From Eledone cirrhosa (taxonomy: Eukaryota), in the NCBI GenBank assembly GCA_964016885.1, contig OZ024752.1, positions 5,084,001 to 5,148,000 on the forward strand: a stretch of DNA of 64,000 bases. The letters are read 5' to 3'. Under the pieces are notes generated by a model, which had not been told where the DNA came from, did no database searches, and saw only the letters and a list, made by a program, of their open reading frames with translations. Positions 1 through 59,395 of the stretch are shown one piece after another. The position numbers and the translations under genes are program-made. Numbering within the stretch: position 1 is the first letter of the stretch; every line of letters starts with the position of its first letter.

Positions 1-1860
1 TGATATCGACTTCCTGTCCCATCTTCCCAAAACCACGGAAACGAATTCACTTCTACTTAGTTTTGATGTGGTAAGCCTTTACACCAATATTACACATGAT
101 TTAGAAATAAAGGCGGTTAAATACTGGGTGGAAAAACATAGAGAAGTGATTCCCACCAGATTCACAGTGTCATTTATATTAGACGCAGTCAGACTTATTC
201 TGGAAAACAACACATTCTTCTTCAATGGAAAGAATTACATCCAAATTAGAGGCACAGCGATGGGAACGAAGTTTGCTCCCATTTACGTGAACTCTGTAAT
301 AGGATACTTAGAACAACAACTCTACGAAGAAATAGAGGAAAAATATAGTACTGAATTTAGAAAGTACATTGAAAAGTCTTGGAAGAGATACCTTGATGAC
401 TGTTTCATCATCTGGATAGAATCTCTAGATACTCTGGATGAGTTCAATATCCTCCTGAATAACCTACACCCATCTCTCCAATTTACAAAAGAGATGAGTA
501 GTACCAAATTACCATTCCTAGATATAATGGTAATCAAAAACGACACCACCATTACCGCGGATATATACTATAAACACACAGACGCCCATCAATATCTGAA
601 TTTTAAGTCGTGCCATCCACCTCATACAAAACGCAACATCCCATACTGCCTAACCAGAAGAATTTGTACCATTGTAGAAGATACGAATACCAGGAACAAA
701 CGCCTAACAGAACTGAGAGAATTTTTGCTCAAACAAAAATACCCATCTCTACTTATAGAAAATGGCATACAGCTGGCTATAAAAATACCTATACAAAAAC
801 TTAGGACAACCCAAGGAAGAAGAAACCAAGAACTGGTCATACCATTTATAATGACACACAAACCATGTCACCAGAATATCTTCAATACGCCAAAGCAAAC
901 CTACCGATCACTGCTCAAAGTAATGAATTAAAAGGTTTAATCACAGAGCGAGCTTTGATTCTTAGTAAAAGACAGCCGAAAAATTTGAAGCAATTACTAA
1001 CAAAGGCAAAGTTTGACCTTAACAACAAAGACCAGTCATTCACTGTATCTAAATGCAATGATAGTCGATGTGGCACATGTCAGTTCATACATACTGGTTA
1101 ATATATGAACACAAAAACTTGAAAAATATTCACAAATGCAAATATGAACTGCAAAAGCAGAAATCTAATTTACTGCATTAAATGCCCGAATTGTGAAGAA
1201 CTATATGTCAGTCAAACTGAAAATGCACTATCGGCACATGTACGGGTGCACTGACAGCAAATCAGAGACCCAAATGTCCGTCAGATACCCCTGAGTAACC
1301 ATCTAGCAACCCAAGCTAAATGAACAATAATAATGCTTAGGGGTATTACTTCTACTATGACTATGCCTACAACCATGTCAACCACTAACAACAACATTAA
1401 TAATAATAAAAGTGATGATTACTGAAGATTTTTTATAAAAACCCTAGAAAATGCTATTTTCATCATTTCTAAAAATAGCAAAACAATTGATGCTTTGGAT
1501 AGGGTCAAATAGTTGATGTTAGACATGCTCAACCAACCATGACGCCTAAACCAATCAGCTTTAATAATCTAGTGAAACCACACACCAATTGGTCGAAATA
1601 CAGTTTGCCAAACTTAGCATTCTGTAGCCCCTTTTTACTGTATATAAGGCACAGATTTTAGCCATCTCATTACAGTTGAAAATTGCAAACTTGACTGTCA
1701 CCACTGAATATGAACCTGAAGATTGTGAAAGCATGAAAGTACTTGTTCAATTAACATTTAATATTCTACCATACTATTTCATTATAATATCCTTATCATT
1801 TTAAAGGATTGTAAATAAAACAAGTAAATCAGACAAAGTTGGAATTCCTTTTATTAATAT
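1..1860 (+). mobile_element. Penelope-like retroelement (RT + GIY-YIG endonuclease, frameshifted) with downstream pseudo-LTR; cut off by the window start
   Basis: ORF 68-931 has PLE RT motifs (QIRGTAMGTKFAP, WKRYLDDCF, LPFLD, YLNFKSCHP). It continues by frameshift through CNDSRCGTC and NLIYCIKCPNCEELYVSQT (GIY-YIG-like, about 1160-1260, with a stop). The non-coding tail carries a hammerhead motif and ends at a (TA)n tract. Confidence 0.9.
1711..1749 (+). ncRNA. Minimal type I hammerhead ribozyme motif in the PLE pseudo-LTR
   Basis: tgaac-CTGAAGA-ttgtgaaagcat-GAAA-gtac-TT-gttca. Stem I is tgaac/gttca; stem II is tgt/gca around a GAAA loop with a T-T closing mismatch; stem III is the palindrome AAGTACTT. 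Confidence 0.7.
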
Positions 1861-2834: not shown

Positions 2835-3605
2835 ATATACAAGGGGTTTTTCTCTAAAAGTGAAAGGCAGATTGTATGATGCTTGTATACAAACAGCGAT
2901 ATTACATGGTAGTGAGACCTGGGCGCTGTGTGCTGAAGACTTGCGTAGATTAGAAAGAAATGAAGCTTGCATGCTCCGATGGATGTGTAATAGTAATGTG
3001 CACGAACGACCAAGCATAAACAAATTGAGAGAGAGACTAAGCATAAGAGGTATGAAATGTTCTGTTCTGGAGAGGAAATTGCATTGGTATGGACATGTGA
3101 TATGTATGAAGGACGACAGCTGTATAAAATAGTGCAGGGCAATGAAAATTGATGGAAGCTACGGAGTCGGTAGATCGAGAAAAACCTGGGACGAGATGAT
3201 AAAAACTGACCTTGCCCACCTACACCTCTCTAAGACAATGACAATGGATCAAGACCTTTGGCACCATGCAGTTGTACAGAAGACCCGACTGCCATTGTAT
3301 ACAAACCTACAGTCAGTAAGCACTTCTTAACCCAATGTACACTCCACCTCACACACCCTACTCCATCCTCCCTCTCCCGTTCCATCCACCATATTGATGA
3401 TACAACAGTCCACACTGTAAGGTGGCCATGTAGGAGACACGGTAAAAAGGGTCCAAGTCCACACTGTAAATGTGGTTGGTGTTGGGAAGGGCATCCAGCT
3501 GTAGAAAACCTGCCAGAGACACTTCCATACGAGCGAGACATGGTCTCCCAACCATTCTTGCATCAAATGGAACAAAACCGTCTAATATACATATATCATC
3601 ATCAT
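2835..3605 (+). mobile_element. RTE-clade LINE 3' fragment with 3' UTR
   Basis: [20 protein letters not shown]...RRLERNE...WYGHV...GRSRKTW, followed by a UTR containing aagggcatccagctgtagaaa. Confidence 0.85.
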
Positions 3606-3630
3606 TATATATATATATATATATATATAT

Positions 3631-3801
3631 GTTATTCCGGGTTGAATCGGAGGTAACCACAGTAAGGTACTCAATACATTGCAGAGTATAAAAGTTTTAA
3701 TATAGATGAGATTCTACAGGACTAGAACTGTTTCATTCTTTAGATGATTTCTAAAGAATGAAACAGTTCTAGTCCTGTAGAATCTCATCTATATTAAAAC
3801 T
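3631..3801. mobile_element. Short PLE-type non-coding insert ending in a hairpin with 52 bp arms
   Basis: Arms 3693-3744 and 3750-3801 are reverse complements around a 5 nt loop (tgatt). Contains an HHR 3' half (GAAAC...GTC) and GTACTCAATAC at 3667-3677. Flanked by (TA)n on both sides. Confidence 0.7.
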
Positions 3802-3816
3802 ATATATATATATATA

Positions 3817-4880
3817 CTAGCAGCAGGACCCGACGTTGCACAGGGTAGGAAACATGAAATAGAAACATGCATATGCAAAGATTGAGGAATGTAGCTGTGT
3901 ACTTTTTGAATTCCCTTATTCTCAGGGAATGATTGTTCATCTCCTGGAAATGTAGAACACCAGCAGGCCGGATCCAGTAGTAGCAGTGTCAGTGGACTGA
4001 TTGCGGAAATCCTGTATGCGAAAGGAGAAAGTGTTGTGGTGCGATGTATGTCGTAAGTCTGTTCACAAATTACATCACGGATGGGGAACACACGTCAGTC
4101 TGAAGGAGCGACATAGTCAATTGTGTGTAAACCAAGTAGGGATATTGAGATGACGAAATCAGCGTCAAATTAGCATAAATGCTGGGCAGCACTGGTTGCA
4201 CTGCATTTACGCAACAACAAAGGTGCGACAAAAGGGGTCACCGTGGAATTAGCACAACCGCTGTTCGGCGTACTTGCGCAGAGTGTTCATACTGCGGTGT
4301 AGGTGCAACAAAAGGGGTCTTAGTAGAAGTAGCACAGATATGAGTTTTACGGTGTCAATAACACAGCAACATACACAGGGCCCACATTTGCGCATGATGA
4401 AAGCACGAAGCATCAACAAGGCGCCGACAAAATTTTAAGGTCCTCCTCATTTCCTCAATCCCCCGAAAATGGTCCTGCTTAAAAGTAAGTAAGTGTTGTG
4501 TCCTCTGTTAAATAAACCAAATTTTTAACGAAATATATGATACTTACGATGTTTAAGTAGCTTTTATATTGAAAATGAAAATGGCATGTAATACCCGATG
4601 CTAATTCGTAAATTTCATAGAAACCATTAAGGGAATCGGACATTTTTTTTCGTCCACAGCAATATGAGGAGACTACTTAATGTGTGCTGCAAATTTTGAG
4701 GAAATCGGCTGGATTATCTTTAAATTATGCCTAAAAAAGGCTAAAAATGCCTTTAAAATGCAGTTTTTTGCCTAATGCAGGCCCTAACGCAGAAAAAGTT
4801 AAAAATCGGTCGGGTACTTCTCAAGTTTTAGGGATTTACACAGACAGACAGACATACATCCTCTGTTTTATAAATATAGA
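3817..4880 (-). mobile_element. Non-autonomous Helitron
   Basis: The minus strand starts TC (tctatatttataaa) followed by a (GTCT)n tract. It ends with a subterminal GC hairpin (ccctgtgcaacgtcggg) and CTAG, and sits between A and T. Confidence 0.8.
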
Positions 4881-4977
4881 TATACACATATATATATATA
4901 CATATATGTATATATATATATATCAAGGGCAGTGCCCCAGCATGGCCTCAGCCGGATGGCTGGAACAGGTAAACGAG

Positions 4978-5043
<66 letters not shown>

Positions 5044-5598
5044 TGTATGTATATATATATGTGGATATATGTGTATATATGTTATGTGGAGCGAGAACAA
5101 TTTCCTGCAAAGACAAAAACACATTTATGGTATAAAACACATTTATGGTATAAAAGGAGTCATTAGACTATTTAGGATAACTGAATGAGAGAGAAATACA
5201 TACATATATAAATACACACACACACACACATTTAATTTATGCAGTATTTATCACTTCTTTTTTGACTAGCTTCTACTTAGCTTTTATGTGACCTAATTGA
5301 TATCTTCTGATATCCAATATTGATATTCATATCAATATTGGTAACAATTCTCTCCATCCTATTCTCATGTTCCAATCAATTCTTCATCAGTATTATCATT
5401 AAAATATTCTAAATTACTTTGAAGAAATTCCTAAAATCTTTTTCCTCACTTTCTTTCCCTTTTTGTTCTTTGTTGAAGTTTTTGGTTTAACTTTTTTGAT
5501 GCTTTTGTTATATTTGTTTATAGCTATTTTAACATTTAATTTTTACCATATTTAAATTTTAGATATCTTCAGTATATGTGTGTATGTGTTTGTATATA

Positions 5599-8001: not shown

Positions 8002-8391
8002 CAAATTCACTACAATTTTCAAAAGTTCAAAAGCAGCACCAATTGCCATCTTGTCTGCTAGAGTTATGTTCTTTCTATCTTGTACTTTTTCTTTTATTGG
8101 TAACTCTTTGTATCTTAGTGGTTTTATTTCCTTGCTTGGGGTGAAAAAGAAAAGAAAAGAAGGGAAGAAAGAATGTGTCTGTTTATGAATATGTATATAT
8201 AAGTGTGTGTGTGTATATATATGTGTGTATATGTATATATGGGTGTATGTATATATGTATATGTGTGTATGTATACATATATGTCTTTACTTTTTCCTTT
8301 TTATCTTTTATAATAACTTTATCTGTATTATATTTCTCTTTTTCTATTTATCAACTATTTATTTGGAAAAAAAGTTTTTATAGTGATGTGT

Positions 8392-9871
8392 TAGAGTGAT
8401 TTGACATTTTACCTCTGTAGTTAGACAACATATAGTAATGTACTAGAGTGGTTTGACATTTTACCTCTGTAGTTAGACAACATATAGTAATGTACTAGAG
8501 TGGTTTGACATTTTACCTCTGTAGTTAGACAAATAGTAATGTACTAGAGTGTTTTGACATTTTACCTCTGTAGTTAGACAACATATAGTAATGTACTAGA
8601 GTGGTTTGACATTTTACCTCTGTAGTTAGACAACATATAGTAATGTACTAGAGTGGTTTGACATTTTACCTCTGTAGTTAGACAACATATAGTAATGTAC
8701 TAGAGTGGTTTGACATTTTACCTCTGTAGTTAGACAAATAGTAATGTACTAGAGTGTTTTGACATTTTACCTCTGTAGTTAGACAACATATAGTAATGTA
8801 CTAGAGTGGTTTGACATTTTACCTCTGTAGTTAGACAACATATAGTAATGTACTAGAGTGGTTTGACATTTTACCTCTGTAGTTAGACAACATATAGTAA
8901 TGTACTAGAGTGGTTTGACATTTTACCTCTGTAGTTAGACAACATATAGTAATGTACTAGAGTGGTTTGATATTTTACCTCTGTAGTTAGACAACATATA
9001 GTAATGTACTAGAGTGATTTGACATTTTACCTCTGTAGTTAGACAAATAGTAATGTACTAGAATGTTTTGACATTTTACCTCTGTAGTTAGACAACATAT
9101 AGTAATGTACTAGAGTGGTTTGACATTTTACCTCTGTAGTTAGACAACATATAGTAATGTACTAGAGTGGTTTGACATTTTACCTCTGTAGTTAGACAAC
9201 ATATAGTAATGTACTAGAGTGGTTTGACATTTTACCTCTGTAGTTAGACAACATATAGTAATGTACTAGAGTGGTTTGACATTTTACCTCTGTAGTTAGA
9301 CAAATAGTAATGTACTAGAGTGTTTTGACATTTTACCTCTGTAGTTAGACAACATATAGTAATGTACTAGAGTGGTTTGACATTTTACCTCTGTAGTTAG
9401 ACAACATATAGTAATGTACTAGAGTGGTTTGACATTTTACCTCTGTAGTTAGACAACATATAGTAATGTACTAGAGTGGTTTGACATTTTACCTCTGTAG
9501 TTAGACAACATATAGTAATGTACTAGAGTGGTTTGATATTTTACCTCTGTAGTTAGACAACATATAGTAATGTACTAGAGTGATTTGACATTTTACCTCT
9601 GTAGTTAGACAACATATAGTAATGTACTAGAGTGTTTTGACATTTTACCTCTGTAGTTAGACAACATATAGTAATGTACTAGAGTGGTTTGATATTTTAC
9701 CTCTGTAGTTAGACAACATATAGTAATGTACTAGAGTGATTTGACATTTTACCTCTGTAGTTAGACAACATATAGTAATGTACTAGAGTGGTTTGACGTT
9801 ATACCTCTGTAGTTAGACAACATATAGTAATGTACTAGGTAGGTTTGATACCTCTGTAGTTAGACAACATA
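8392..9871. repeat. 52 bp minisatellite, about 28 copies
   Basis: Unit ctagagtggtttgacattttacctctgtagttagacaacatatagtaatgta, with 49 bp variants and no unique spacers. Confidence 0.97.
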
Positions 9872-10115
9872 TGTTAGGTTGTTCATAAAATATGGCTGAA
9901 TTCAGAAACAATTTTATTCTGGAAAAATTAACAACAGAAATGTTTTGATTAGTCAAAGTATGAGCCGTGAACATCTATGGATCTCTGCCTATTGATTATT
10001 CGGTCAAGAAAAGGATCATTGGTGTTTCGCAGAAAGAGCATCGAACACGCTTCAAAATGCCAAATGTTTTGATTTTCATTGAGCTCATGGTACGCATTTA
10101 TCAAGCTTATTTATA

Positions 10116-15267: not shown

Positions 15268-15642
15268 TATCATCATCATCATCTTATGTCCGCTTTTCAC
15301 TGCTTGCAGGGGTTGGACGGAAACTGATTTTGGCTTGATTTCTACCGCTGGATTCCCTTCCTAACACCAAGTTAGTGCTGGGTGTTTTTTTTTTCCGTGG
15401 CGCCTACAGTCCACTTTACATGTGTGGGCTGTGTGCTTTTTTACTGTGGCACCTCCACGACCACTTTGCAGTGGAATGATAGGGACCCCAGTCCTATCAT
15501 CTCATTTCTACAGCTGAGTAAACTGGAGCAATGTGAAATAAAGTGTCTTGCTCAACGAAACAACACATCACCAGGTCTGAGAATTGAACTCACAACCTTT
15601 CGATTGCAAGGCCAACGCTTTAACCACTAAGCCATGTGCCTC
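15268..15642 (-). mobile_element. SINE family 1 copy
   Basis: tRNA head, CORE-like body and RTE-type tail, as in the other copies. Confidence 0.88.
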
Positions 15643-15649
15643 TATGTAT

Positions 15650-15681
<32 letters not shown>

Positions 15682-23149: not shown

Positions 23150-23938
23150 ACCACCACTGCTACTGCTACTACTACTACTACTGCTACTACTACGGCTACT
23201 ACTACTACTACTACTTTCGCCACTATTATTACTACTACTGTTACTACTACTACTACTATTACTACTACTACTACTGTCACCACTACTACCATTATTACCT
23301 CCACTACTTCTACCACTATTACTACAACCTCTACTACAAATAACTCTGCTACCACTATTACTACAACCTCTACTACAAATACCTCTGCTACCACTACTAT
23401 TACTACAACCTCTACTACAAATACCTCTGCTACCACTACTATTACTACAACCTCTACTACAAATAACTCTGCTACCACTATTACTACAACCTCTACTACA
23501 AATACCTCTGCTACCACTACTATTACTACAACCTCTACTACAAATACCTCTGCTACCACTACTATTACTACAACCTCTACTACAAATACCTCTGCTACCA
23601 CTACTATTACTACAACCTCTACTACAAATACCTCTGCTACCACTACTATTACTACAACCTCTACTACAAATAACTCTGCTACCACTATTACTACAACCTC
23701 TACTACAAATACCTCTGCTACCACTACTATTACTACAACCTCTACTACAAATACCTCTGCTACCACTACTATTACTACAACCTCTACTACAAATACCTCT
23801 GCTACCACTATTACTACAACCTCTACTACAAATACCTCTGCTACCACTATTACTACAACCTCTACAACTACTACCACCATCACCACCACTACTACTTCCA
23901 CTACCAATACTACTACTACCACCACCACTACTACCACT
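23150..23938. repeat. (ACT)n-derived 39/42 bp minisatellite with flanking trinucleotide tracts
   Basis: Unit ccactactattactacaacctctactacaaatacctctgcta, about 13 copies. Confidence 0.93.
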
Positions 23939-39024: not shown

Positions 39025-41000
39025 AGAAAATGAGGGGTTTGTTTAAATGAAAAAAAAACGAGATGTCCTACATGAGTGAAAGTATAAGGAAAAGAAATCG
39101 AAAATGCAACTGGAGTCTTTTTAAGAATATTTATTTGTTTCTTTTACTGGTTTCACAGTTCTTATGCTTTTCAACAGTAGAATTGAGATGGAGGGTTTGT
39201 GGTTTTTCTCGCATCTGGTTGGTGTTCGAATGTTACTGCTGTTTTATGTGGAAAAAAGTGGCTCGAATTGCTAGGTTTTTAAAAAAAATAATTTGGTTGG
39301 TTGATGAGTGTAACATAAATAAGTACATCAACTTTCGCGCCAGTTCGTGTTTGAGGGTTCTTTATTACCATTTTCATTTTAGAAAGTGGCTCAAATTGTT
39401 ATTTTTTTATAAATTAATTTGGTTGGTTATGACTGTCATGTGAAAATGTACATTAAATTTTGTGCCAGTTCCTATTTGGGGGTTCTTTATAGCTGTTTTC
39501 ACAGTCATATGATTTGTCATAGAGAGTTTTGTGCCAAACAAAAGATAATAGTCAAAAAAAGGGATGGGGAGAAATCGTTCTAATTCAGTGAGTATGGCTG
39601 ATGTGCTGAGGTGTCAAAATTCATACTTTCTATTGAAATAAATTGAATGTTTGTATAGATAGTGGTGATGGTGGCGGCAGGGTAGAAAATAGAGATACAT
39701 ATTTTTTTATTTGTGTGTGAATGCATGTGTTGGAAAATTATTCCATTAGTAGAAATGGAGAAGGATGTTATGTGTGGGTGTGTGTGGGGTATGGTTAGCA
39801 TGTTAAGGTGTTAAAATATTAACATATGTTAAAGTATATTTAGCTCTGGTCTTTTATTTTCGAATATAGAAAAGGGTGATATGTGTGTATGTGTGTGTGT
39901 GTATGTATGTGTCTGTGTGGATGGTTAGCATGTTATGATGTTAACATATTAATGTATATTAAACTATATTTAATGCTGGTCTATATTTTTGAATAAACAT
40001 ATTTTCCTTATTTATTCATATTTGGTCTGTTGTATTGTCAGTGCAAAGATAAGGTGGGAAGACTTGGAGTTTGGGTGTCTCATCGTTTGCGCATATGTCT
40101 AGATGTGCACTGAGTAGTATCCGTCTCGTGGTAGAGTCTCGTAATTGTTGGCAATGAATTGTCATCCTGTTACTGAATGTGAGTTTAGTTTGTCCTATAT
40201 AATCTTCATTGCATCCTTTATATTTAATGGCATAAATTAAATTTTTTGATGAGCAAAGTGAAGTGATTTTTTGCAACAAAATTTTTTCATGATTGAAATG
40301 TATACATGGTGCCTTCAATGAGGTGAGTGCAAGTTCCGCAATTAGAGCGACTACATTTTTTGACAGTTGGTTGTGGGTTTGTGGTGGGTAATTTGGCATT
40401 GGTGAGTAATGTTTTTAGTGATTTCGGTTGTCTTTTGCTTTTGATTATTTTGTGTGTTTCAAGGGCTTTTTTCATTCTTGGGTCTTGTTTCAATAGTGGG
40501 ATGTTCTTGTGAATAATGTTGTATGCCTCCGTATTTCTTGGGTTGTGTGTTTAGATATATGATAGAATATTGGACGAACCTTGAATTTGTTTCTGTTTTC
40601 ATAATTCATCAATGCCTATTGCTTTAACCCTTTCTATTCCATTATCTATTAGTAACGGTGGGTACTGTATTTCGAGCAGAATTTCCTTTAATTCTTGCAC
40701 TCTTTTATTTTGTGTTTCATAATTGGAGACAATTGTGCAAATTCTTCTTGCTAGATTAAAAGGGATGTTCGTCTTTGTGTGCTTTGCATGGCTGGAAGTG
40801 AATAACAGGTATTGTTTTGAATCTGTTGGTTTGTTGTTGATGTCAGTTTCAATATTTGTGTCTTTTTTTATGATTAAGATGTCCAGAAATGAGAGTTGGT
40901 CTTTACTGTATTCCATTGTGAATTGGATGTGGTTATTGATGCTGTTAATTAAATTTTTGAAATCATTTAGTTGGTCGAGGCAAATACAATAAAGTGTACC
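39025..41000 (-). mobile_element. Decayed PLE related to the 1-1860 element (RT C-terminus, GIY-YIG, pseudo-LTR)
   Basis: ORFs 40599-41009 (LSFLD, KPTDSKQYL, NIPFNLARRICTIV), 40287-40493 (CSRSNCGTC) and 40016-40399 (NLIYAIK...DYIGQT). Confidence 0.88.
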
Positions 41001-41319
41001 TCTTCTCAATAAACCATCCTATATATATAATGGACCAAGAGGTGGAAATTAGCAAAATTTAATGCATTTTTACAAAAATACTGTAGATTTTTAGTCCCTC
41101 TGAGTTGTACAGACACTTTCTTGTCACCTTTACCATTGCACTTGCAGTGAACTCATTTAACTAGTTTGGGGCTCATTGGAAACCTATAACAAATGATGCT
41201 ATCAAATGCTTGATACAAATATTTCTTTCTAACTGTACAGTAACAGCTGAAGCCAACAGGGAAGCCTATATGTAGTCATTTGATCAGCTAAAAATAGCAA
41301 CTAAAGAGTGGGAGTGTTA

Positions 41320-45158: not shown

Positions 45159-45306
45159 ATATATTGTTTCCATCAACAATTATTATTACTATATATATAT
45201 ATATAATTTTTGTACATCTCAATGCATTGCCTACTTCTGAGATTAAAGAGTAAATGGAAACAACAAGCAAACAACACAGTACAAGGAAGAAATATATTAG
45301 TTTAAT

Positions 45307-45645
45307 GGAGGCACATGGCTTAGTGGTTAGAGCATTGGCCTTGCAATCGAAAGGTTGTGAGTTCAATTCTCAGACCGGGTGATGTGTTGTTTCCTTGAGC
45401 AAGACACTTTATTTCACATTCCTCCAGTTTACTCAGCTGTAGAAATGAGATGATAGGGACTGGGGTCCCTATCATTCCACTGCAAAGTGGTCGTGGAGGT
45501 GCCACAGAAAAAAAGCACCCAGCACTCACTGTAAATGAGGTTGGTGTTAGGAAGGGCATCCAGCTGTAGAAATCAAGCCAGAATCAGTTCCCGTCCCACC
45601 CTTGCAAGCAGGGAAAAAGCAGACGTAAAATGAAATGATGATGAT
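45307..45645 (+). mobile_element. SINE family 1 full copy
   Basis: Intact box A and box B, CORE-like block, RTE-A tail. Confidence 0.92.
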
Positions 45646-45817
45646 GAATGCCTGATATTGTAGGAAAAGAGTATTTACGTTTCTGACACTAGTCCCTCAT
45701 CAGAAGATAGAATGAGAAGTAAAAGATGAAATAGAAAGATAAAGAATAAGAAGAGAAAAGAACGAAAAAAAATGTTTTCAGGAAAAAGCACATGTGTATT
45801 CAGTCAGATATATATAT

Positions 45818-46165: not shown

Positions 46166-46659
46166 TTGTTATACTTTGGGAGGGTCATATTGCCAATAAG
46201 AAACACATGCACCAATTGCTTTCACTCCAATTTATTATAAATTTAAGAATCTATAAATTTCTGGTTGGTTGGTTGGTTCACAACTGGACGGTTGTTCATA
46301 TATTGTCAAAGTTCTTTCGTCACACATTCTGTGACCTCTTCAGTGACTGGGGATTCTTCTCTTTGTTTTGTGCCTCTCCTTTGTTCTGTCCTACGCCATC
46401 TTGTTTTTGTGTGTGTTGTGTGTTTCGTTTGCGCATGTGTTACATCCGGGTGTCTGTGTGTGTTTTCAGAGGTCACAGAATGTGTGACGAAAGAACTTTG
46501 ACAATATATGAACAACGATCTGGTTGTGGAACCAACCAACCAATCAACCGGAAATTTATAAATTCTTAAATTTATAAATTTAATTTATAATAAATTGGAG
46601 TGAAAGCAACTGGTGCGTGTGTTTCTTATTGGCAACATGACCCTCCCAAAGTATAACAA
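46166..46659. mobile_element. Long-TIR foldback element (about 175-190 bp arms, 128 bp spacer)
   Basis: 46166-46339 and 46468-46659 are imperfect reverse complements. Confidence 0.8.
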
Positions 46660-53612: not shown

Positions 53613-54207
53613 AGAGTTTTCAAGTCGCTGGCTGGACTAAACAGTCACACTCGGTCAGCGCATCGGTATGGGTTCTCCTACATGGATATAAAGTAGTGGC
53701 CGTACTCGAAAACGAGTTGGCAGCCACCATATATATATGTATATATGTATGTATATATATATGTATATATAGGGAGAGATATATATGTATATGTAGGGAG
53801 AGATGACTCCTTAGCCTTTGTCAAGGCAGAATTCTAGGAGAAGGAAAACTCTGATATAACACCTGCAACCCTGATGGTATCCAATGATGTTGACTTGTTC
53901 TTCTTTTTGGTAAATATCATCTTGGTTAAGAGAGTGGGACTGGCTTTGTGCAGTGCCTTTGCTCACTATAAAAGCTTCACGGCACAGGCATTGCTTTATA
54001 TCTGGAGATCTCTCTGCACTTGTCGTCACATGGTACCATGGGCCCAGCACTATGTGTCAATAGGTGTCACAAGTGTAGTGTTTGTACCAGAGTTTTCAAG
54101 TCGCTGGCTGGACTAAAAAGTCAGACTCGTTCAGCGCACCGGTAGGGGTTCTCCTACATGGATATAAAGTAGTGGCCATACTTGAAAACGAGTTGGCAGC
54201 CACCATA
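53613..54207. repeat. Direct repeat pair of about 118 bp (53613-53730, 54089-54207), each ending at a (TA)n tract
   Basis: agagttttcaagtcgctggctggactaaa...gagttggcagccaccat occurs twice with several substitutions. Confidence 0.85.
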
Positions 54208-54583
54208 TATATGTATATATATACATGTATGTATATATATATGTATGTATGTATGTATGTATATATATATATATATGTATGTATGTATATATATATATAT
54301 ATGTATGTATGTATGTATATATATATATATACATGTATGTATATATATATATATGTATGTATGTATATATATATATGTATGTATGTATGTATATATATAT
54401 ATGTATGTATGTATATATATATATGTATGTATGTATATATATATATGTATGTATGTATATATATATATGTATGTATGTATATATATATATGTATGTATGT
54501 ATATATATATATGTATGTATGTATATATATATATGTATGTATGTATATATATATATGTATGTATGTATATATATATATGTATG

Positions 54584-54688
<105 letters not shown>

Positions 54689-54841
54689 GTGTATATATAT
54701 ATATATATATGTATGAATGTATATATAGTGTATTTTACAATACACTGTACACTTAATTAAAAGCATTTTGAAGACCATACGCTATTGTTTTAAAGTAGCG
54801 ACATTGTCGCTTACTTAAATTTTTGGCAGGCAGGGGGAGAT

Positions 54842-54886: not shown

Positions 54887-55155
54887 AGTACTCTCTCCGT
54901 CTGGCGAAAATTATGTGTGTCGGATTCTTATAGAATTCCAGTAACAATCAGGAACTGGTTATACAGAGCGATTGCCGGCCCAGCAGAAATTGAAAATTAG
55001 AATTGGTGCTCTGAAATAGTGAGATATATATATATGAATGTATATACAGTGTATTTTGCAATACACTGTACGCTTAATTAAAAGCTGTCCGCCGGTGAAA
55101 CAATTGTAACACACAATAAATTGAGTTCAGATGCATCACTGATTTTTCGTTTTCT

Positions 55156-55831: not shown

Positions 55832-56176
55832 ATATATATATATATGTATACGTATGTATATATATATATATATATATACGTATGTATATATATATATATA
55901 TACATACGTATATATATATATATACATATGTATATATATACGTATGTATATATATATATATATATATATACATACGTATATATATATATATATATATATG
56001 TATACGTATGTATATGTATATATATATATATGTATATGTATGTATAGTATATTAGGGAGAGGATCAGGGGTGTATAACACTCCACTTATCCAGCAGGCAG
56101 TATAAGGTTAGCTCGATGTCTGAGGACAGAGCCGTGATATAATCAACAACAAAGAACGCCTATAGCATATGCATAT

Positions 56177-56234
56177 CTTTACTTGCTAACATTGTTTCAT
56201 CCGCACTATAAGTGGGACTCATCAGAGCATAAAG
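56177..56234 (-). ncRNA. Type I hammerhead ribozyme motif (left arm)
   Basis: Exact reverse complement of 58801-58858. Confidence 0.8.
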
Positions 56235-58800
56235 GTTAATTACATACCATACAAGCAATAACAAATCCAAGACATTGAAGAAATAAAGAATAAAAAATAA
56301 TAAAAGATAAAAAATATTGAGGAAGTAAAAAATATTGAGGAAGTAAAAATAAAAATAAACATTGAAAAATAAACATTGAAAAATAATTGAAAAATAATTG
56401 AAAAATAAGGGGTGCTATCAGTCACAGTTGGGCGGGGTGCTGTCAACATATAGTTACATACAAGCATACACATGGATAAGAGAACAGACAAGAATAGATA
56501 AGATAGATAGGAGTAGGTAAGAATAGATAAAAAATAGGTGAAAAATAGGTAAAAAATAGACATATAATATATATAAGGAAATATAAAAAACATACATATA
56601 AAATATACAGATAATAGTGATACAGGGTAAGGAATGAAATAAAATAAAATAAAATTAAATTAAAATTAAAATTATATAAAATAAAATATAATATAATATA
56701 ATAATAAAATAAGATAAAATAAAATAAAATAAACTAAAATAAAATAATATAATATAAGATATAATTAAATAAAATTAAATAAATAAAATAAAATGAAATG
56801 AAATGAAATAAAATAAAATAAAGTAAATTGAGATAAGATATATATTTTTTTAGAATATATTTCTTGAATATATCAGGGGCCCACGAAGGCCCTAAGTGTC
56901 ACAGTTATCAGTATCACTTGACCATTGCAATGCAATGGAGACGTCCCAGGTTGGGCAGTCTCAAAAGTTCACTCGAAAGTCACGGGTGTGCATTCACACA
57001 GTTGAGCGGTGGGGTAATCACAAACCGGTTCACACCCGGGCAGGAGTCCAATGGTCAACAGAGGTACATCGAAGGAAGGTAGGAGAATTCACGTGCAGCA
57101 GCAAGAGGCAGACAAGTGGGCCGAAAGCAAGCAGGTGCAGGCGGGCTAGCCGAAAGCAAGCAAATACAGTTGGGTCAGGCGGGTTAATATGCATACCCAA
57201 CAGCGCATACAAAAGATATATAAAAAATAGCTTCAAGAGCCAATATCATGAAGTCACCGCATTGGGACATCTCAAGATTATACACACCAATATGTTCTGC
57301 ACGTATATGCACATATACACACCACATGCATATGCAGAGACGGTATACACATATATATATTTTTATATACAGACATATACAACCACCTACACCCATACAC
57401 ATATAAATGTATACACAGACACACACGCACACACACACAGCGTAGGACACCCGGGTCAAAGCTGATATTAAACACAGAAATACCACATTAGGCAAGACCC
57501 ACCACCACGGATAATACATTCAAAATAAATACATATGTATTTATTTTGAATGTATTATCCGTGGTGGTGGGTCTTGCCTAATGTGGTATTTCTGTGTTTA
57601 ATATCAGCTTTGACCCGGGTGTCCTACGCTGTGTGTGTGTGCGTGTGTGTCTGTGTATACATTTATATGTGTATGGGTGTAGGTGGTTGTATATGTCTGT
57701 ATATAAAAATATATATATGTGTATACCGTCTCTGCAGAACATATTGGTGTGTATAATCTTGAGATGTCCCAATGCGGTGACTTCATGATATTGGCTCTTG
57801 AAGCTATTTTTTATATATCTTTTGTATGCGCTGTTGGGTATGCATATTAACCCGCCTGACCCAACTGTATTTGCTTGCTTTCGGCTAGCCCGCCTGCACC
57901 TGCTTGCTTTCGGCCCACTTGTCTGCCTCTTGCTGCTGCACGTGAATTCTCCTACCTTCCTTCGATGTACCTCTGTTGACCATTGGACTCCTGCCCGGGT
58001 GTGAACCGGTTTGTGATTACCCCACCGCTCAACTGTGTGAATGCACACCCGTGACTTTCGAATGAACTTTTGAGACTGCCCAACCTGGGACGTCTCCATT
58101 GCATTGCAATGGTCAAGTGATACTGATAACTGTGACACTTAGGGCCTTCGTGGGCCCCTGATATATTCAAGAAATATATTCTAAAAAAATATATATCTTA
58201 TCTCGATTTACTTTATTTTATTTTATTTTATTTCATTTCATTTTATTTAATTTTATTTATTTAATTTTATTTAATTATATCTTATATTATATTATTTTAT
58301 TTTATTTTATTTTATTTTATTTTATTTTATTTTATTTTATTTTATTTTATCTTATTTTATTATTATATTATATTATATTTTATTTTATATAATTTTAATT
58401 TTAATTTAATTTTATTTTATTTTATTTCATTCCTTACCCTGTATCACTATTATCTGTATATTTTATATGTATGTTTTTTATATTTCCTTATATATATTAT
58501 ATGTCTATTTTTTACCTATTTTTCACCTATTTTTTATCTATTCTTACCTACTCCTATCTATCTTATCTATTCTTGTCTGTTCTCTTATCCATGTGTATGC
58601 TTGTATGTAACTATATGTTGACAGCACCCCGCCCAACTGTGACTGATAGCACCCCTTATTTTTCAATTATCTTTCAATGTTTATTTTTCAATGTTTATTT
58701 TTATTTTTACTTCCTCAATATTTTTTATCTTTTATTATTTTTTATTCTTTATTTCTTCAATGTCTTGGATTTGTTATTGCTTGTGTGATATGTAATCAAC

Positions 58801-58858
58801 CTTTATGCTCTGATGAGTCCCACTTATAGTGCGGATGAAACAATGTTAGCAAGTAAAG
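58801..58858 (+). ncRNA. Type I hammerhead ribozyme motif (right arm)
   Basis: cttta-tgct-CTGATGA-gtcccac-ttata-gtgcggat-GAAA-caatg-TT-agca-ag-taaag. Bulged stem I, 7 bp stem II with one bulge, minimal stem III, GUU triplet. Confidence 0.82.
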
Positions 58859-59025
58859 ATATGCATATGCTATAGGCGTTATTTGTTGTTGATTATATTA
58901 TATGTATGTATATGTATATATGTATATGTATATATATGTATGTATATATATATATATGTATATGTATATGTATGTATATATATATACACATATATGTATC
59001 TGTATATATATATGTATATATATAT

Positions 59026-59367
59026 GGAGGCACATGGCTTAGTGGTTAGAGCATTGGCCTTGCAATCGACAGGTTGTGAGTTCAATTCTCAGACCAGGTG
59101 ATGTGTTGTGACCTTGAGCAAGACACTTTATTTCACATTGCTCCATTTTACTCAGCTGTAGAAATGAGATGATAGGGACTGGTGTCCCTATTATTCTACT
59201 GTAAAGTGGTTGTGGAGGTGCCACGGCAAAAAAGCATCCAGCACTCACTGTAAATGAGGTTGGTGTTAGGAAGGGCATCCAGCTGTAGAAATCAAGCCAG
59301 AATCAGTTCCCGTCCCACCCTTGCAAGCAGGGAAAAAGCGGGCGTAAAATGATGATGATGATGATGA
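59026..59367 (+). mobile_element. SINE family 1 full copy
   Basis: Same structure as 45307-45645. Confidence 0.92.
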
Positions 59368-59395
59368 TATACATATATATGTATATACGTATGTG

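Follow-up and report, generated by a model that had tools for sequence, protein, structure and literature searches.

Insertions of Penelope-like elements (PLEs) in which 5'-truncated copies stand head to head, with a tail on one side only and hammerhead motifs on both strands, have been published (PMC3846280, PMC8557442, PMC4209133). How the inverted repeats and the one-sided tail are formed is treated as an open question in section 15 of PMC8557442. The minimal hammerheads of PLEs cleave poorly and likely require a dimer or a protein (PMC4209133, PMC11167929). In vitro, both target strands are nicked and extended in a lizard PLE, with two internal start sites (PMC11167929); inverted insertions and target duplications are not discussed in that paper's main text.

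Here we describe a palindromic insertion in a window of 64,000 nucleotides from Eledone cirrhosa (GCA_964016885.1, contig OZ024752.1, positions 5,084,001 to 5,148,000; the window is the whole stretch analysed, and positions are counted from its first letter). From its motifs and its relatives, the element is almost certainly a dead, 5'-truncated, head-to-head insertion of a Penelope-like retrotransposon with Hydra-clade motifs. The locus itself is ordinary PLE debris. It belongs to a young family (intact ORFs, long arms, long tail) that yields countable constraints on insertion: one L and one S end in 50 of 50 cases, either arm longer, and one source per insertion.

The palindrome and its hammerheads

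The axis of the palindrome lies at 57534|57535. The two arms meet with a spacer of 0 and pair perfectly for 202 bp on each side, in agreement with the first-pass annotation; no other perfect palindrome with arms of 25 bp or more and GC above 20% exists in the window. That annotation had given its extent as 56138..58897, with a left extension at 56050-56137; the extension is real, and the corrected limits of the element are 56047-58898. A flanking 14-bp direct repeat (56033-56046 / 58899-58912), absent from the annotation, surrounds the element, and the flanks agree with its statement that the ends lie in (TA)n. The features are as follows.

56033..56046, + strand: target-site duplication, left copy, 14 bp, in (TA/TG)n; its last 4 nt are microhomology with the element's continuation
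56047..56136, - strand: tail of about 90 nt between the S (short) and L (long) end sites, left arm only
56047..57534, - strand: tailed (L) arm, monomer about 3186-4711 of the family's 3' non-coding region
56176..56234, - strand: type I hammerhead motif with a minimal palindromic stem III, predicted cut after 56188
56238..56250, - strand: three other-subfamily alleles, left arm only; conversion tract or template switch
57534..57535, no strand: head-to-head junction, spacer-less, with a 2-nt TA overlap, unique in the genome
57535..58898, + strand: tail-less (S) arm, monomer about 3186-4624, with a private 35-bp deletion
58801..58859, + strand: type I hammerhead motif, CTGATGA at 58810, GAAA at 58837, predicted cut after 58847
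58899..58912, + strand: target-site duplication, right copy, 14 bp

Between the arms there are 9 substitutions and 5 indels: three segments, of 35, 11 and 18 bp, are present in the left arm only, and microsatellite segments of 5 and 25 bp in the right arm only. At subfamily-diagnostic sites the arms are discordant in 3 of 43 cases, which places the window among four loci with discordant arms; the left arm carries three other-subfamily alleles inside 13 bp, and the remaining differences are mostly private to the right arm. Rfam microRNA matches at the axis are below the gathering threshold and were set aside, since they are a product of the perfect hairpin.

Both arms contain the identical 59-nt type I hammerhead motif. 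It comprises an inner stem I of 4 bp, the core CTGATGA, the hairpin of stem II, GAAA, a stem III that is palindromic about a single base, and a GUU triplet; for the motif at 56176-56234 this layout was compared with the Hydra hammerheads in File S2 of PMC8557442. The first-pass annotation had put a hammerhead about 40 nt from each outer end. Both motifs are there, and the distance is right for the right arm (39 nt) but not for the left, where the true end is about 130 nt away. It had also suggested a search with hammerhead models: Rfam yields no hammerhead match, at the gathering threshold or at E<=10, whereas scanning the two strands of the window with a descriptor detects both motifs and one unrelated candidate. 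Compared with shuffled sequences, the hammerhead region shows no better folding (z -0.4 to -0.8), and the predicted minimum-energy fold of the monomer differs from the active fold. Among 144 hammerhead matches in the fetched loci, some of them overlapping, the commonest change (9 times) affects an unpaired base of stem II. In a read-through transcript, the single sense hammerhead would come after its own complement and would likely be buried in a duplex and silent. We propose that the hammerheads are carried along as passengers in the terminal repeat. As a separate observation, a second, unrelated hammerhead-like motif is present at about 46343 (- strand), within an inverted pair (46166-46339 / 46468-46659) that is likely the stub of another PLE.

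The family behind the arms

A 421-bp part of the arm has 626 candidates in the genome, and the 40 that were scored are 93-100% identical. Furthermore, the 45-nt hammerhead core occurs in 681 exact genomic copies (control, 0). A total of 93 stretches were fetched: 33 lie near the best matches, 40 belong to the first 100 hammerhead matches on C1, and 20 served for end completion or held-out tests; the sample of loci is therefore biased toward best matches and the first matches on C1. In many copies, the sequence upstream of the position of the window axis continues into an ORF. The repeat unit is 4.7-5.0 kb long (4711 and 4953 bp), with about 2.2 kb of non-coding sequence between the stop codon and the hammerhead. 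The ORF is uninterrupted in L074, where it measures 829 aa, and in L079 and L082. Seamless tail-to-ORF tandem junctions are found 41 times genome-wide, and partial tandems or pseudo-LTRs are present in L040, L046 and L049.

The ORF contains the motifs RVRWRA, SDKT, YRDD, CxCx5C, VY..YIG, CxxC and CxH; its GIY-YIG core, read by eye, has a single Cys. A Pfam search with the family's own ORF found no match. A profile built from 60 homologs matches retron RT (E 1.6e-4), and among these 60, five match GIY-YIG and three match RVT_1 in Pfam. In total the ORF has 147 homologs, and the named ones among the 120 listed are mostly from Argonauta hians. These motifs and homologs point to an RT with a C-terminal GIY-YIG nuclease, and the motifs suggest membership of the Hydra clade. 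In L033 (6323-8635, - strand) and other ORF copies, an Asn/Lys-rich linker with a short tandem duplication lies between the RT thumb and the nuclease, which recalls the N-rich inserts of Adineta PLEs.

Coding sequence is absent from the window copy, because its arms correspond to the last 1.4-1.5 kb of the roughly 2.2-kb non-coding part. With its ORF-bearing sister copies the family is autonomous, and the window element is a truncated copy of it and no spreading palindrome. The PLE origin proposed in the first-pass annotation is thus upheld by these sister copies and by the motifs, as is the placing of the hammerheads in a PLE terminal repeat.

Other repeats occur in the window. Two further RT/GIY-YIG fragments at 2-928 (+) and 40019-41018 (-) (RVT_1 E 6.9e-6, GIY-YIG E 2.3e-4) probably represent further PLE families, and their sequences are only weakly similar to the palindrome family. 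A direct repeat of about 185 bp (53613-53795 and 54089-54279) has copies that end in a TA run; the same repeat end is seen in the flank of L085, and it resembles another TA-targeting partial tandem. A short direct repeat (about 54728-54770 / about 55048-55085) is located in an island of about 430 bp flanked by long TA runs. A tRNA-headed SINE-like repeat has many copies, for example 59008-59383, 45305-45662 and 15415-15665. Finally, 8379-9872 is a 52-bp minisatellite with 29 copies, and 23156-23938 is an array with periods of 42, 81 and 123 bp that could encode a Thr-rich repeat.

Insertion patterns and possible routes

The first 100 hammerhead matches on C1 form 72 clusters, of which 21 are head-to-head, 4 direct and 47 single, and none is tail-to-tail. 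A short inverted arm was found in 6 of 18 fetched singles, and the inverted share of insertions is estimated at about half. The ends of the copies correspond to two TA-like sites, both adjoining (TA)n: S, 51 nt past the predicted cut, and L, 90 nt beyond S. Every inverted insertion with both outer ends visible has one L and one S end (50/50, made up of 39/39, with L078 added by eye, 3 completed later and 8/8 predicted beforehand; L045, in which the second arm stops early, and L120 and L123, with a single visible end, S, are left out of this count). A genome-wide L:S ratio of 321 to 1006 was discarded, the longer pattern missing one subfamily. Single-arm insertions end at S in 9 cases and at L in about 20, as counted by eye, arms below 40 nt being missed. 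Clear target duplications are 13-17 bp long, and duplications with at least two non-TA letters are found at 5 of 38 loci, compared with 0.5% of 1406 control pairings.

The arm lengths follow no such strict rule. In 39 insertions the longer arm is L in 21 and S in 14, and four are symmetric (within 12 nt; some boundaries are approximate); where the tail-less arm is longer, it is often so by more than 1 kb. Symmetric junctions are enriched nonetheless, with 4/39 against 0.53 expected (permutation p 0.0017). The first-pass annotation had suggested checking where other copies turn; the inverted copies compared each turn at a junction of their own. Truncation at monomer 3185-3194, the position of the window axis, is seen in six arms (window, L031, L041, L045, L057 and L060), in a sample biased toward arms that reach that region. 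Two loci contain fold-backs: in L115 a spacer-less fold-back of the L arm is joined to a short S arm that was not copied from the L arm, and L045 consists of an S arm and its fold-back, with no L end.

Within a locus, the two arms are discordant at only 9 of 774 subfamily-diagnostic sites (34 loci), compared with 13,345 of 28,642 (46.6%) across loci; this comparison excludes monomer columns 4120-4300, 1490-1700 and 4526, where repeats were misaligned. An origin of the arms from two unrelated templates was rejected in view of this near-complete sharing of alleles. In addition, 11 of the 34 loci have locus-private variants, 21 in all, that are common to the two arms.

Two further structures may be mentioned. 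Near-identical composite mini-insertions, each combining a fold-back with a short separate arm, are found 4.2 kb apart at L115:652-850 and 4876-5074, by local duplication or as an assembly repeat. L116/L117 (G000:C4:355.66-355.68 Mb) is an inverted insertion of about 12 kb in which both arms cross the whole unit into the next, as a multimeric or circular template would give.

Overall, truncated PLE insertion combined with twin priming seems the best explanation, and we hold it with reasonable confidence. Somewhat less firmly, it can be said that the palindromes of the family probably arise when both nicked (TA)n target strands prime at two sites of one RNA. The GIY-YIG nuclease would nick both target strands about 13-17 nt apart. 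Of the resulting 3' ends, located in TA repeats, one would prime at S and the other at L. Both cDNAs would stop early, and microhomology would then join them head to head. In the window, with its shared stop base, one cDNA end would fold back on TA and copy itself before meeting the second primed end. Its symmetric axis is most likely such a fold-back; alternatively, both polymerases stopped at one RNA break. Since one RNA has one S and one L site, the L+S rule and the shared alleles would follow. The more specific version, in which S and L are each used once by opposite strands and the second polymerase displaces the first cDNA, is a serious but tentative candidate.

Twin priming is familiar from L1, where both target strands prime one RNA and an inversion is the result. 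L1, however, inverts a non-overlapping part, whereas the Eledone arms both copy the same 3' region. Single-RNA twin priming, if true, would account for a tail on one side, for inverted pseudo-LTRs and for the absence of tail-to-tail copies without an antisense template, and the copies of this family are a ready system for testing it. The family has hundreds of copies, roughly half of which are inverted, and would in that case supply kilobase RNA hairpins from all over the genome. In the literature searched (few subscription papers, with the early PLE reviews outside it), neither a strict L+S rule nor single-RNA twin priming is stated for PLEs.

Some observations fit the main reading less well: the 3 of 43 discordant sites between the arms of the window element, L045 with its missing L end, and the absence of a Pfam match for the family's own ORF. 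The sharing of alleles between arms could also be due to later gene conversion within the palindrome, or to two RNAs of one locus. The latter underlies an unlikely but coherent alternative, namely twin priming on two RNAs from the same source locus, with an asymmetric dimer of the protein holding both. PMC11167929 predicts a PLE dimer, strand displacement becomes unnecessary, and shared subfamily alleles would result; however, an extra asymmetry is required for the 50/50 L+S ends, and the locus-private variants common to both arms speak against two templates, although conversion or undersampled sources could account for them.

A little less probable again is pure hairpin priming, in which the tail-started cDNA turns back and serves as its own template, and the TA-like S of the new strand is where the second target end joins. 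Self-priming has already been proposed in PMC3846280, and such a route accounts for the symmetric axis, the L+S ends and the shared alleles of the window, for the enrichment of symmetric junctions and for the fold-backs in L115 and L045. Nevertheless, it requires a tailed arm that is never the shorter of the two, and the tail-less arm is the longer one in 14/39; moreover, S-ended single-arm insertions occur, and the S arm of L115 is no copy of its L arm. As the family's sole route, pure hairpin priming is excluded; for the window locus alone it is possible. The hairpin-primed synthesis of the first-pass annotation is thus plausible here and fails for the insertions with a longer S arm.

Two other explanations are highly improbable. 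A palindromic element that is non-autonomous and spreads as a unit (foldback, MITE-like or retrozyme-like), the parasite of the first-pass annotation, would suit a non-coding window copy with a hammerhead near both ends, but a genome-wide search for the axis, allowing up to 2 mismatches, finds this one occurrence, the junction differs per inverted copy, and elsewhere the arms, a 5'-truncated 3'-UTR, run into the RT/EN ORF of an autonomous family. An assembly or fold-back read artefact, which the annotation had doubted as well, could be imagined from the fact that public contigs and RAD reads (4 runs) cover the family and none spans the axis, which is supported by the assembly and internal evidence; against it stand the private and subfamily-type differences between the arms, their differing natural end sites, the 14-bp target duplication and dozens of sister insertions of the same plan.

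Comparison with known systems

Some known systems were considered and rejected. A non-LTR retrozyme would consist of tandem non-coding units, each with a hammerhead, whereas the tandem units of this family contain the ORF and the window has two inverted copies; likewise, the retrozyme tandem-unit model of 10.64898/2026.07.22.740005 does not fit the window. A foldback or MITE DNA transposon was rejected in view of the unique axis and the differing junctions.

The family shows the traits of EN+ PLEs: a single ORF for RT and C-terminal GIY-YIG (in a sister copy), pseudo-LTR partial tandems, a 5'-truncated inverted copy, a one-sided tail and a hammerhead motif in the pseudo-LTR. Traits of the Hydra clade are also present, namely RWK/DKT (as RVRWRA, with R for K, and SDKT), the CxCX5C linker, insertion into (TA)n, CxxC and CxH around conserved E and N, and a nuclease without CCHH. 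The length generally below 3 kb given for this clade, which is descriptive and non-diagnostic, is exceeded by the units of 4711 and 4953 bp.

With Hydra-clade PLEs (PMC8557442) the family shares DKT, CxCx5C, CxxC, CxH, the lack of CCHH, (TA)n and the odd palindromic stem III, but it has RWR where the clade has RWK, and its tail of about 90 nt compares with 30-40 bp published for PLEs. Penelope-13_HM, in the supplement of the same paper, is likewise listed with a 5'-truncated inverted copy and with hammerheads on both strands. Hydra-1_Obim of octopus, in contrast, measures 2507 bp and has another hammerhead sequence, compared with an Eledone unit of 4.7-5.0 kb. The minimal hammerheads of metazoan PLEs (PMC4209133) are similarly of type I, with an unstable palindromic helix III and a predicted need for a dimer; opposite-strand pairs 100-700 bp apart were already noted there, whereas the Eledone pair is 2.6 kb apart.

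The Penelope of Adineta vaga (PMC3846280) has the same head-to-head pLTRs, junction palindromes, one-sided tail and target duplications, and its ORF likewise has an Asn-rich stretch. The route proposed for it is self-priming on an antisense template, whereas the pattern in Eledone, with either arm longer, calls for two primings. In PAc (Poseidon of Anolis, PMC11167929), two internal RT starts past the hammerhead bound the tail and the target is AT-rich, as in Eledone, and the nicking and extension of both strands is the same as we propose here. PAc belongs to another clade, however, and its start sites are alike on both strands, which by itself does not predict the strict pairing of one L with one S end that characterizes the Eledone insertions.
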